Shown here: piece by piece, positions 46,654 through 51,063 of the stretch | How the letters are laid out: every line of letters begins with the position of its first letter | Position numbering within the stretch: the first letter of the stretch is position 1 | Virus record (IMG/VR): IMGVR_UViG_3300047160_036266 | Coordinates: 279,422-343,421 of that record | From: a virus | Lineage: Duplodnaviria > Caudoviricetes | Reading direction: 5' to 3' (one strand) | Length of the DNA: 64,000 nucleotides | Notes under the pieces: generated by a model | What the model saw: only the letters and a program-made list of their open reading frames with translations | What the model was told of the DNA's origin: nothing | The model's database searches: none | Made by a program: the position numbers and the translations under genes

Positions 46654-49313
46654 CCCTTCTTCGTATATCCGGGCTGCCCCTCAAGGTCCAGAATGTGCAA
46701 CTCGTCCATCGCACGAGTGTAAGCAACGTATTTCGCGTTGGCTTCCTGTGCCAAGTCCTCTGGACGCTGGGCCTTGGGGTGCGGGAACTGGTCGTCGCGC
46801 AGAATATACACCCTGCTGAACTCCAGTCCTTTTGACTTGTGGGCCGTCGTCAGGATGACGGGATTCTGCTCCTCGACCTTCCGGCGATATTCATTCAGAT
46901 CGCGCTCGTTCTCGGCTACATCCAGACCCGACAAATTGGCCTTCAGCCAGGCTTTGAACTGGCTGATCGTCTTTTGCGCCGGCCTGCGGCCTCGATCATC
47001 AGGGTAATCATCGCTCATCTCCGGGGCGAACATACCAATACAGTTCACCAACGCCTGGGTGGTATCCCGCAGTTCTTGCATCATCGCCCGCTTGGAGTTC
47101 GGCTGGCCCTGGTCCTCGAAACGGTCGTCTTCCTTTTGCTGGTGATCCTGCAACTTGTCCTTCAGGTCCGATATGGGCTGGTAATCGGTCGTACCCGTCA
47201 TGCGCATAATCTTGGCGATATGCTCCAACAAGTCCTTGGCCACGTCTTTGCCGACGATGATAAACGGCACCGCACTCGCCAGAAGCTTCAAGGCAGCGTT
47301 GACCAGCGGCTCGTTGGTCCGGGAGATAAACGCCGTGGGCTTGATATTGCCCTCCATTTTCTCCTTGCGCAACTGGCCGAAGGCGTCTTCGTATTTCAGT
47401 TCCTTGTGCGTGACCTCGCCCTCGCCGCCGTCCTTGAAGACCTTGCCCTGTTGCAAGTTGTTGACGTGAGTATTCTGGTTGGCGTAATCCAAGATGGCTT
47501 TGCGAGAGCGGAAATTCTTGGACAGGGTGAAAGGTTTCCAGCCCTCTTTATTGGCTGATAAGCCGCCCAACTGCTCGGCCAGATTATTGAAGGCGTCACC
47601 GTCAGCGCCCCTGAACCGATATATAGCTTGGTTGGGGTCGCCCACGGCCACTATTTTAGCGCCGGCATCATGAAGCTTCTTTAGGGCGATCTTCTGGTTC
47701 TCGTTGAAATCCTGCACTTCATCCGCCAGCACCACGTCATAATGCGGCCAGTGCAGTTCCTCGGCGTGGATGGAGGCATACCACAGGTCATCGTTGAAAT
47801 CCCGGAACTGCCCCATGTTGTATTCAAAATCATCCTTCTTCAAGACATGCTGCGAGGCGTGCGGGAGGGTTTCATCCAGCATCCACATCGTCGCCTGCAT
47901 CATCTCCTGCTTGTAGTTCTTCTTCATGAAGTCGTAGCCCAGGATGCGGCGCAGGTGGCCGGTGATCGTGGCATAGTAGCTGGGACTGTCGGCGTAACGG
48001 TCGATTCTCTCTTTCACGTCGCTCAGGCTGGTGTCGATGTCGTACTTGTCCATGACCTTCTCCAGCTTGGGCTGGACCTCGGCTTTATTGCGAGGATCGA
48101 GGGAATAGGACTTGGCCAGCCCCGTCAAGGTCAGGACTTCCTCCTTGAAAATATATTGCATCGAGTTGAGGATGCTGGTAAGCGTCTTCTTGATCTTGCT
48201 GTCGGCGGACACCATCTGGGCGGCATCCTTATTGGGAATGCCAAGGCTCTGGACCAATTGATTGAACTGCGGGGAATAGGTGGCGAGAATGCGGGCCTTC
48301 TCGATCATGCCCTTTTCGCCTGGGTGGTTCTTGCTAATCTCCACCGTGCGGCTCGTCTGGCGGATGCGGCCCTTGTTCTCCGGCGATCCAATCACCCTCC
48401 CCAAGAAGCCGTTGGTCGTTTCGACCTGCACCCATTGCGGAAACTTTTCTTTGGCCTCGACTTTGTTCTTGGTGTTGAAGACCAAATAGAGCCACTTCTG
48501 GCCGGGGTTGCCATATTTCCAGGCCAGGTGCTTGAGCATGGTGGTTTTGCCCGATCCAGCCAGGGCGTTAATCATGATGTGATCTTGGGTGCCGCCCTCC
48601 ATGATCTGCTTGAACTTCTCGTCAATCTGGCGCTGTTCGCTTTTCTCGCCGGGGGCGGTGCCGCTGTCCAGCATCTCGTCGGAGAGGATATGCTTGTTTC
48701 CTACGGGGCCGGCGGGGCTGGGCTTGGCCGGCTCTGGGGCCGGATCGGCATGGGGCCTGACGTGGGCCATAAGGTCTTCGATATTCTTGGACGTGATCGG
48801 CTGACCCGTCTCTTCGTCCTTGACGGACGTGACGATGTTCTTGACGGCCTCGCCAGGAATGATGGCGGTTCTCTTCTCGGCGTCCAGGGAGATCATCTCC
48901 CAGGAGGCGTCTTTTCGCTTGGCCAGGGCAACGTCCTGTCCGATGCGGAAACCCTGGGAGTTGTTGCCGGTGATTTTGGCCAATACCCAGGTTGGTCCGG
49001 CGGCTGGTTGCATGGAAGGTAAAGCCCTCGCTGGTGGACGCTCCTCCGGCGGGGGAGCAGCGGGTGGTTCGGGTCTTGGAGCAGGATGGGGAGCCGGTTT
49101 AGCAGCGGGCTTGGCTGCCCGACGCTTGGCTAGTTCCTCTTCAATTTCTCTACGGAATTCGGGGCTGATGAGTCCGGGATTATCGACGTTTTGCAAGGCC
49201 CAGGTCAGCCAGCCGCTATCAACTTCGCTGTGGTGCTTCCCTCGATGTTTGCCGAATCCAAACACACCCTCGTTCGTAAGGGTGAGCCAGCTTTTGAAAG
49301 TGAGTGTGTCCAT
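46650..49313 (-). CDS. UvrD/Rep-family SF1 helicase with an N-terminal extension and Pro-rich linker
   Basis: ALAGSGKTT, DEVQD, VGDPNQAIYRFRGA, LSKNFRS, TAHKSKGLEF and YVAYTRA. Start moved to 49313 because the longer ORF start crosses a terminator. Confidence 0.92.
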   Translation of the reverse strand: MDTLTFKSWLTLTNEGVFGFGKHRGKHHSEVDSGWLTWALQNVDNPGLISPEFRREIEEELAKRRAAKPAAKPAPHPAPRPEPPAAPPPEERPPARALPSMQPAAGPTWVLAKITGNNSQGFRIGQDVALAKRKDASWEMISLDAEKRTAIIPGEAVKNIVTSVKDEETGQPITSKNIEDLMAHVRPHADPAPEPAKPSPAGPVGNKHILSDEMLDSGTAPGEKSEQRQIDEKFKQIMEGGTQDHIMINALAGSGKTTMLKHLAWKYGNPGQKWLYLVFNTKNKVEAKEKFPQWVQVETTNGFLGRVIGSPENKGRIRQTSRTVEISKNHPGEKGMIEKARILATYSPQFNQLVQSLGIPNKDAAQMVSADSKIKKTLTSILNSMQYIFKEEVLTLTGLAKSYSLDPRNKAEVQPKLEKVMDKYDIDTSLSDVKERIDRYADSPSYYATITGHLRRILGYDFMKKNYKQEMMQATMWMLDETLPHASQHVLKKDDFEYNMGQFRDFNDDLWYASIHAEELHWPHYDVVLADEVQDFNENQKIALKKLHDAGAKIVAVGDPNQAIYRFRGADGDAFNNLAEQLGGLSANKEGWKPFTLSKNFRSRKAILDYANQNTHVNNLQQGKVFKDGGEGEVTHKELKYEDAFGQLRKEKMEGNIKPTAFISRTNEPLVNAALKLLASAVPFIIVGKDVAKDLLEHIAKIMRMTGTTDYQPISDLKDKLQDHQQKEDDRFEDQGQPNSKRAMMQELRDTTQALVNCIGMFAPEMSDDYPDDRGRRPAQKTISQFKAWLKANLSGLDVAENERDLNEYRRKVEEQNPVILTTAHKSKGLEFSRVYILRDDQFPHPKAQRPEDLAQEANAKYVAYTRAMDELHILDLEGQPGYTKKG

Positions 49314-49340: not shown

Positions 49341-49387
49341 AAAAAGAAAACCCCGGCGATCCCATTTCTGGAACCGCCGGGGTTTTC
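49341..49387 (-). terminator. Strong rho-independent terminator ending the candidate ncRNA
   Basis: GAAAACCCCGGCG-GTTCCA GAAA TGGGAT-CGCCGGGGTTTTC then TTTTT: 13 perfect pairs plus 6 pairs (two G.U) and a GAAA loop. Confidence 0.9.
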
Positions 49388-50215
49388 CCAGCAGATCAGT
49401 TTCCACACTCCGCACACGCGCTTTCGCGTTTGCTATGCAGAAGTACGAAGTGCGCCAATTGAGTCCGTCATCCTTTGGTGTTATTGCAGCTTTCCACAAG
49501 GTATGTCTGCCTGCTCAGGCCATTTGGACCCGCCGCTGACCCTGTGGCGTGACAGTATGAGGTTTGCGAACGGCTTGCACCTTCTCACTCCCTTGGGGTT
49601 TGAACGCCGGTTCCTACTTCTGCCCAACGCTTTGCAGCGTCATGCGTCCCATAGCACCACCAACGCCCTTGCCTTACGGTCGCTCCTCGGCTCTTGCCGT
49701 CACCTTGACCCCATACCCTCCTCATCTTAACGCCGGAGGAGTAGCGTCGTTTCGTGGGCGGCTTTTTGCGTGCCGCCAGGCTCAGCACCGATATGCTCGC
49801 TCGCCAGCGATGCTCCGTTAATGAGCGGAGGGCTTTTCAGCGGGGCACTGCTACTCCCCGCCGTATACCCCTCGGTGCAACCAGGACTCTCGCATCCACC
49901 GCTCAGGCACCCTTTTGGGGCGGCGTTCCTAAGCGTTCATCAGGACACCTGTTGCGGCCTATTTACCCCCTGCCCATTTCTGGTCAAAGGGCTGCTTAGC
50001 CACCATCCTGGTTCCGACTGCCTGCCGTGGTTTCCCGGATCAAATCCCCCTCCAGAGCAAGTCTTGAAGGTTTCATCTCCCCGTTGTGCCGAATAGCACT
50101 CCCTACCCTCGGTCTTGGTTTTCGTCTCGGCGGGATTTTTCACCCGTCCGATTGCCCACGGCCTTCCCGTTTCCCCGCCCCCTTTCCAGAGAGCGGGCGG
50201 ACTCGTCAACCCGGT

Positions 50216-50238
50216 TGTCAAAGAGCAAGGCTCTCACC
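50216..50238 (-). promoter_or_regulatory. rrn-type antitermination leader (boxB-like hairpin plus boxA)
   Basis: GGT-GAGA-GCC (50238-50229) immediately followed by TGCTCTTTGACA (50227-50216), 11/12 identical to the E. coli boxA TGCTCTTTAACA. Confidence 0.75.
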
Positions 50239-50251
50239 GTTGCATGATCTT

Positions 50252-50280
50252 CTTTTACTGCACCCTGCCGAAGTTGTCAA
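50252..50280 (-). promoter_or_regulatory. sigma70-type promoter for the candidate ncRNA
   Basis: TTGACA (50280-50275), 17 nt, TAAAAG (50257-50252): perfect -35, weak -10. Confidence 0.55.
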
Positions 50281-50307: not shown

Positions 50308-50336
50308 TTTACAACTGTCGCATCCTCTAGTATAGT
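50308..50336 (+). promoter_or_regulatory. sigma70-type promoter, probably giving a leaderless RNA-ligase mRNA
   Basis: TTTACA, 17 nt, TATAGT, with the ATG 7 nt later and no SD. Confidence 0.7.
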
Positions 50337-50343
50337 AAGTACC

Positions 50344-51063
50344 ATGAAGTCCGACAAGAGCCTACTCCCGGAATTTCCACGAACACGCCACCTGCCGTAC
50401 AAGCCCAATGCTGTGCGGGACGATCTGGTGGCGTCGGAGGATGATTGCGCCGTAATCTTCACCCTGGCAACCGTTTACGTCGAGGAGAAAGTGGACGGGG
50501 CCAACAGCGGCATGATGTTCTATGAGGACCGCCCCATAATAAGAAACAGGAGCCATGTGCTGAACAAGGGCTACCTGAAGGACACCCCGGCCAAGGTCCA
50601 GTTCCGCCCGATCTGGAACTGGTTTTATCAGAATAAGAAGTCCTTCGCTGATATAAACCGCATGGCGGGCGGTTCCGTGGGAATATATGGGGAGTGGATG
50701 TACGCCCTGCACGGGATCGAGTACGACCGGCTGCCCGACTGGTTCATCGCCTATGATGTCTACGACCCGGAGGCAGGAAAGTTTCTGGACACGGCCAAGG
50801 CCCGCCATCTATTGGAGGCGGCTGGCTTCCAGACCACGCCCTTCCTCCACGGCGGTCCCGTCGAAAGCTGGGAGCAGCTAGAGCGGTTCTGCCACGAACC
50901 CTCGGCGTTTTCTGGCAAGGACCGGCGGGAAGGGGTTTATATCAAGGTGTCGGACGGGCGATTCACCACCCACCGTTTCAAAATGGTGCGGGGCGATTTT
51001 ACCCAGGGATGCAAGTGGAACGAGAAGAGGATCACCAAGAACCAACTCTTCAAGGGGAAATGA
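50344..51063 (+). CDS. ATP-dependent RNA ligase (Rnl2-like nucleotidyltransferase domain)
   Basis: FPRTRHL, EEKVDGAN (KxDG), YGEW, FIAYDV, EGVYIK and KMVRGDF. Confidence 0.88.
   Translation: MKSDKSLLPEFPRTRHLPYKPNAVRDDLVASEDDCAVIFTLATVYVEEKVDGANSGMMFYEDRPIIRNRSHVLNKGYLKDTPAKVQFRPIWNWFYQNKKSFADINRMAGGSVGIYGEWMYALHGIEYDRLPDWFIAYDVYDPEAGKFLDTAKARHLLEAAGFQTTPFLHGGPVESWEQLERFCHEPSAFSGKDRREGVYIKVSDGRFTTHRFKMVRGDFTQGCKWNEKRITKNQLFKGK

Follow-up and report, generated by a model that had tools for sequence, protein, structure and literature searches.

The closest described relatives of the element studied here lie in the leaders of bacterial rRNA (rrn) operons, where boxA loads NusB-S10 and is both essential for the rrn anti-termination complex and sufficient to prompt its assembly; a GA variant of the motif, AUGAUCUUUGAAA, binds NusB of Bacillus subtilis (PMC13753749). 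boxA also precedes suhB and CRISPR operons (PMC5725501; PMC13753749). Full-text literature searches returned no paper tying boxA to huge or jumbo phages, to phage tRNA arrays, or to Planctomycetes. Here, we describe a candidate boxA of the rrn type at the head of a large noncoding RNA (ncRNA) gene in a phage.

The window, by which we mean the whole 64,000-nt stretch analyzed, occupies the final 64 kb of one virus record of 343,421 bp (55.8% G+C; 69% complete by CheckV). The leader and the ncRNA are read from its minus strand. From position 50280, 5' to 3', this strand carries the -35 hexamer TTGACA (50275 to 50280), a 17-nt spacer, the -10 hexamer TAAAAG (50252 to 50257), AAGATCAT, and GCAAC-GGT-GAGA-GCC-TTGC, which overlaps TGCTCTTTGACAA and is followed by CCGGGT. 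Transcription is predicted to start near 50245 and to yield a structured, untranslated RNA of ~900 nt (49341 to 50245, minus strand), which ends in an intrinsic terminator made of a long G+C hairpin and a T-run (49341 to 49387, minus strand). There is no gene-like open reading frame (ORF) between 50343 and 49313; the ATG of a UvrD-like helicase gene stands at 49313, downstream of the terminator, and on the other side of the ncRNA, the plus strand carries an RNA ligase gene from 50344 onward. Given the ORF-free span, the promoter, and the terminator, we consider that the motif heads a promoter-to-terminator unit of ~900 nt. No Rfam family matches the ncRNA region under gathering or E-value thresholds, and a blastn search of 50,697 phage records with the RNA gave no match. 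The RNA ligase gene has a putative promoter of its own, TTTACA-17-TATAGT (window 50308 to 50346, plus strand), which stands back to back with that of the ncRNA and is kept in the homologous loci L271/L310; it ends 7 nt before the ligase ATG and suggests a leaderless ligase mRNA.

An earlier sequence-only reading of this DNA had proposed an rRNA-style boxB-boxA leader at this place, and the motif is indeed there: GGTGAGAGCC (50238 to 50229) is followed by a single T and then by TGCTCTTTGACAA (50227 to 50215), all on the minus strand, with the 12-mer of that reading at 50216 to 50227. The motif lies on the sense strand ~18 nt past the predicted start, beginning at about +19. It agrees with the E. 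coli boxA consensus at 12 of 13 positions, in keeping with the likeness first noticed, and at 13 of 13 with boxA from the rrn leaders of Adhaeretor mobilis and other Planctomycetota. The 3' extension CCGGGT (50209 to 50214, minus strand) places a GGT three bases past boxA (+17 to +19 of the motif), a feature frequent in Planctomycetota leaders. The boxB-like hairpin, GCAA-c-GGU GAGA GCC-UUGC (50225 to 50243, minus strand), is also present but larger than first claimed, with 7 bp, one bulge, and a GNRA loop (-5.8 kcal/mol in ViennaRNA; RNAalifold columns 129 to 147). It begins 2 to 8 nt past the predicted start, and in the ViennaRNA fold, its 3' strand overlaps the first three boxA bases; the hairpin would sequester these bases, which counts against the boxA reading. 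The rrn order of boxB then boxA holds, as a stem-loop lies directly 5' of boxA both here (7 bp) and at a second copy described below (8 bp), and base changes in relatives preserve the pairing. We treat boxB as a soft feature and a functionally weak criterion, because rrn boxB is of little weight for anti-termination even in E. coli (PMC12360218). No clear boxC was identified at the leader.

Comparison with planctomycete rrn leaders came out in favor of the boxA assignment. Host leaders were fetched by scanning a species-genome collection with a 16S word, which we take to be the PLA46 probe, and 120 loci were obtained. Among the 80 record titles listed for these loci, most named Planctomycetota and some named other phyla, and Rfam found a 16S gene at the expected place in three loci; the set is validated by these titles and these three matches only. 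A match to TGCTCTTTGACAA at 11 to 13 of 13 positions is present in the 600 nt before 16S in 34 of 45 Planctomycetota leaders, mostly 170 to 250 nt ahead of the gene, whereas shuffled leaders have such a match in 6 of 900 cases. The host leader consensus is TG(A/T/C)TCTTTGACAATTTGGT. The 13-mer is exact in five Planctomycetota loci, among them Adhaeretor mobilis, in which it lies 237 nt ahead of an Rfam-confirmed 16S gene. GGT at +17 to +19 occurs at 29 of 44 Planctomycetota sites versus 0 of 27 from other phyla, and both phage copies carry it. The idea that the phage captured a host rrn leader is unsupported, as the likeness to host leaders ends at boxA and GGT. On two planctomycete chromosomes (loci L152 and L171), the rho and nusB genes are same-strand neighbors no more than ~1.5 kb apart (neighborhoods G003:C1:3599751-3601875 and G006:C1:4240110-4242126).

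A 19-nt matrix was then built from the 44 Planctomycetota leader sites only, and both strands of the 343-kb record were scanned with it. Of 686,806 positions, the two highest scorers are record 129120 (minus strand, 23.1 bits) and record 329648 (minus strand, 21.3 bits), the latter being window position 50227; at the base composition of the record, 0.027 matches of at least 21.3 bits are expected. The next-best position reaches 16.6 bits, and the third and fourth matches are antisense within long ORFs. Host sites score a median of 27.6 bits on the same matrix (range, 4.9 to 33.3). No boxA above 16.6 bits was found in the other ncRNA genes of the phage (tmRNA, RNase P RNA, and other tRNA clusters).

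The top-ranked position is a second copy of boxA (record 129120 to 129102, minus strand). The 15-mer TGCTCTTTGACAACC recurs exactly at record 129120 on the sense strand of a tRNA array, the kind of recurrence that the sequence-only reading had proposed to look for. The TGA of this copy is the stop codon of a 99-amino-acid ParB-like ORF, and an 8-bp hairpin lies just before it. Downstream, ~260 nt of structured RNA without an assigned family come first, then a tRNA, Y-RNA-like units, and further tRNAs, so that the copy precedes ~2.5 kb of mostly untranslated RNA (ncRNA plus tRNAs). Since the ParB-like stop codon overlaps the copy, boxA stands where ribosome cover ends and the untranslated stretch starts; the same overlap with coding sequence puts an extra constraint of its own on this copy. 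Each copy lies in the sense orientation, directly after a hairpin and at the start of an untranslated RNA. The ~260-nt RNA between copy 2 and the next tRNA (L001:2345-2600, minus strand; record about 128845 to 129100) is also found in L312, another tRNA-array locus, with its ends kept and its middle replaced (alignment A3). Back-translated searches with the helicase and the ParB-like ORF gave no viral relatives.

Three other huge-phage tRNA arrays (L312, L314/315, and L317-319) each contain one top-scoring boxA in the sense orientation, and the chance of such a matrix match is 1.7e-4 per locus. The ParB-like gene of L312, 92% identical to ours, ends in CGCTCTTTGAAAACTCGGT; there, the copy 2 site (L312:2791-2809) reads CGCTCTTTGAAAAC, with three bases changed and TTGACA lost to TTGAAA, and still scores 22.8 bits. 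In the other two arrays, a single outstanding match lies between tRNA genes: TGATCTTTTACAATTCGGT, at 25.6 bits, in L314/315 (L314:291-309; L315:271-289) and TGATCTTTGAAAATCTGGA, at 22.7 bits, in L317-319 (L317:1775-1793; also L318 and L319). Phage tRNA arrays may carry boxA as a general feature. The broader proposition, that huge phages with hosts in Planctomycetota and probably in other phyla routinely plant a host-dialect rrn boxA in tRNA arrays and before large ncRNAs, we regard as evenly poised between true and false. The array boxAs, of the planctomycete/Bacillus type, either follow a tRNA-like gene at 3 to 4 nt or cover the stop codon of the ParB-like gene. Just upstream of its tRNA-Ser/ParB-like/boxA segment, L312 encodes a 225-amino-acid protein with a ribosomal L7/L12 domain (PF00542; L312:1078-1755).

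Homologues of the ~900-nt RNA were found via a metagenome scan and via the neighboring RNA ligase gene. Two further lineages, L271 and L309/310/311, both have the helicase/RNA/ligase arrangement; the L271 RNA is about 90% identical (92% mean column identity, alignment A1), and that of L309-311 is more diverged, with a ligase that is 71% identical. The boxA sequence TGCTCTTTGACAA is invariant in L271 and L309-311, so that conservation among homologues, on which the sequence-only reading had made its case depend, is found. In alignment A2, the -35 hexamer and AGTAAAAG are invariant as well, while the spacer and the upstream DNA diverge; at least 8 of the 17 spacer bases differ, and the -35 is unchanged across the three lineages. 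Fixed hexamers around a diverging spacer are what one would expect of a real promoter. The stretch from GCAACGG to CCGGG holds only one substitution, a U to C that turns a U.G pair of the hairpin into C-G. CCGGG is invariant, the last T of CCGGGT is a C in L309-311, and the bases right past CCGGG diverge (TTGACGAG versus CAAAGGAG in A2).

Other relatives give no such picture. Both the ncRNA and boxA are absent from L305-L308, the RNA ligases of which are 59 to 74% identical, and neither the 532-kb relative G001 nor record G002 has a DNA-level homologue of the RNA, the best blast match being coding sequence. In G001, matches to the 13-mer with one mismatch are no commoner than those to a control pattern (8 versus 6). 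One G001 sequence, GGTTCTTTGACAAC (16.2 bits; L258:1495-1513, minus strand; G001:C1:491154-491166), lies 7 nt past a tRNA-Leu and ~110 nt before a phage-encoded EF-Tu gene; its score alone is within the chance range for a 532-kb genome. The helicase homologue of a more distant relative carries an intein (PF14890 match; L306:567-3860).

That the transcript is untranslated, as the sequence-only reading had argued, is borne out by the homologues. No ORF is conserved, several 1-nt indels break the frame between them, and the RNAalifold structure has 308 pairs, 41 of which show double compensatory changes. The indels and the 41 compensatory pairs argue for an RNA that is untranslated and structured. 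The terminator is likewise conserved with compensatory changes (RNAalifold columns 1037 to 1048).

We put at roughly 70% the probability that the element is a functional rrn-type boxA, one that provides an untranslated phage RNA with N-independent anti-termination borrowed from the host. We infer that the host RNA polymerase would start at the sigma-70-type promoter near 50245 and that the nascent RNA would fold the small GNRA hairpin and then expose UGCUCUUUGACAA, to which host NusB-S10 would bind. Together with NusA, NusG, and probably SuhB/S4, NusB-S10 would turn the polymerase into an rRNA-style anti-termination complex, which would resist Rho on RNA that has no ribosome protection and may chaperone its cotranscriptional folding, until transcription would stop at the intrinsic terminator (49341 to 49387). 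The same signal would be reused in the tRNA/Y-RNA array. rrn anti-termination acts mainly on Rho-dependent and less on intrinsic terminators, which would fit a layout that ends at an intrinsic terminator.

The machinery for this appears to be available. NusB and Rho domains were found in all five planctomycete genomes reached via the loci; S10 is, to our knowledge, a universal ribosomal protein, and we assume it in a planctomycete host. The phage record, at 69% completeness, has no match to NusB, S10, NusG, or the RNA polymerase beta subunit (Pfam Rpb2_6), which fits use of the host polymerase and Nus factors, and in a record of this completeness, a phage RNA polymerase or Nus factor could sit in the missing part. 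Thus, as far as sequence analysis reaches, the earlier suggestion that the phage borrows the rRNA transcription machinery of its host is supported, and we infer that this host is a member of the Planctomycetota.

The alternative that fares best, although we judge it unlikely, accepts that boxA binds Nus factors and gives it a main role other than protection from Rho, as a folding or processing platform or in a negative capacity. There are precedents for both: the rrn complex acts as a folding and processing platform for 16S, and the boxAs of suhB and hisG promote Rho termination or block translation, in line with the finding that boxA can, depending on context, stimulate Rho-dependent termination (PMC12360218; PMC5725501). 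The phage RNA itself offers a hint in a possible long-range helix that begins right after boxA. RNAalifold pairs columns 158 to 161 with 951 to 954 and 168 to 173 with 943 to 948, joining CCGG and GAGUCC after boxA (50214 to 50211 and 50204 to 50199) to a possible 3' strand, GGACUC..UUGG (49455 to 49466, minus strand). The helix spans ~750 nt (window 50214-50199 with 49466-49455) and would enclose the body of the RNA; we tentatively liken it to the leader-trailer helix of rRNA precursors, and closure of this kind recalls rRNA maturation. The comparison is tentative because the helix shows only invariant positions or one-sided changes and no double compensatory change, which equally weakens it as an argument for a processing role. 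A negative role of the suhB kind sits poorly with the 50 nt downstream of each copy, which, unlike at suhB, contain neither a ribosome-binding site nor the start of an ORF. Moreover, both copies precede a long untranslated RNA, where anti-termination is needed.

Less probable again is coincidence, in which the bases would be kept only by the demands of RNA structure (the 3' strand of the hairpin and the closing helix) or, at copy 2, of the encoded protein. Single matches to such a word are cheap: the 12-mer with at most one mismatch has a chance expectation of 0.29 per window and turned up at least once in 27 of 100 shuffles, so that the match alone is nonsignificant in 64 kb. Most of the 44 metagenome and at least 119 viral matches to the word look like chance or coding sequence; in the viral-contig scan with a 14-mer, which gave the latter, a tRNA was nearby in 1 of the 22 loci examined, which tells little either way. 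The conservation of boxA among the RNA homologues is no higher than that of other core blocks of the RNA and so does not single it out. Significance comes instead from the rank on the host matrix, the second copy, and conservation. The two top-ranked matches, against 0.027 expected, are both in the sense orientation at the head of an untranslated RNA; the match reaches the phylum-specific GGT; and boxA recurs independently in three further phage tRNA arrays, with a chance of 1.7e-4 per locus.

Finally, we think it very improbable that the motif works as DNA, with TTGACA as the -35 of a second promoter or with TTGACAAC/TTGACG words as regulator sites: three TTGAC words do fall within 75 bp (50280, 50221, and 50208) and TTGACAAC occurs 13 times in the record, a few of them in promoter-like contexts, but there is no acceptable -10 at 15 to 19 bp past either copy, the third word, TTGACG, is not conserved (CAAAGG in L309-311), the hexamer is TTGAAA in L312 with the boxA score kept, and a -35 element leaves unexplained the TGCTCTT upstream of the hexamer, which is conserved and matches the host boxA. 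A second promoter on the boxA TTGACA was rejected on the grounds of the missing -10, the unconserved TTGACG, and the loss of the hexamer in L312.

If the rrn-type boxA works as proposed, the host polymerase would be converted into the rRNA anti-termination complex for the production of phage RNA. This would offer a mechanistic entry point to the expression of kilobases of untranslated RNA by giant phages, here tRNA arrays, Y-like RNAs, and a ~900-nt RNA, in hosts that have Rho, and it would argue that these RNAs are made by the host polymerase and are untranslated. It would also be independent sequence evidence for Planctomycetota, a phylum from which very few phages are known, as the hosts of an uncultured soil phage. 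Being phylum specific (GACAA...GGT), the boxA dialect could serve as a sequence-only marker of the host phylum for uncultured phages.

Among known systems, the phage element is most like the bacterial rrn leader with its boxB-boxA(-boxC) order. The phage 13-mer is the leader boxA of several Planctomycetota, a hairpin stands directly before boxA, close to where the long, structured, untranslated transcript is predicted to start, and the predicted promoter is of the sigma-70 type. In principle, no phage N-like factor would be needed. Unlike an rrn leader, it is phage borne, it heads a ~900-nt RNA and a tRNA/Y-RNA array rather than rRNA, and at its second copy, boxA and the stop codon of a protein gene overlap. 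With lambda nutL/nutR, it would share the principle of a phage boxA RNA that recruits host NusB-S10 to escape termination. In the lambda nut sites, however, boxA comes before boxB, which binds the N protein, whereas here the hairpin precedes boxA in the rrn order and the bases past boxA diverge between relatives, so that the site lacks the lambda-type nut arrangement. Lambda boxA is a shortened form, whereas the phage studied here has the full rrn consensus, and the target is untranslated RNA rather than delayed-early mRNAs. Like the boxA before gammaproteobacterial CRISPR arrays, the element lies ahead of RNA that has no ribosome protection (PMC5725501; PMC13753749); such arrays show that boxA can act outside rrn operons. 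The suhB and CRISPR cases are chromosomal, and the suhB boxA acts negatively (PMC5725501), whereas here the setting is a large-ncRNA gene and a tRNA array of a phage and the phylum is a different one. If it works as proposed, boxA-dependent regulation would extend beyond rRNA, suhB, CRISPR arrays, and lambdoid nut sites. We therefore see in this locus a known element, boxA, in a new setting: the ncRNA gene and tRNA array of a giant phage, written in what appears to be the dialect of the Planctomycetota.
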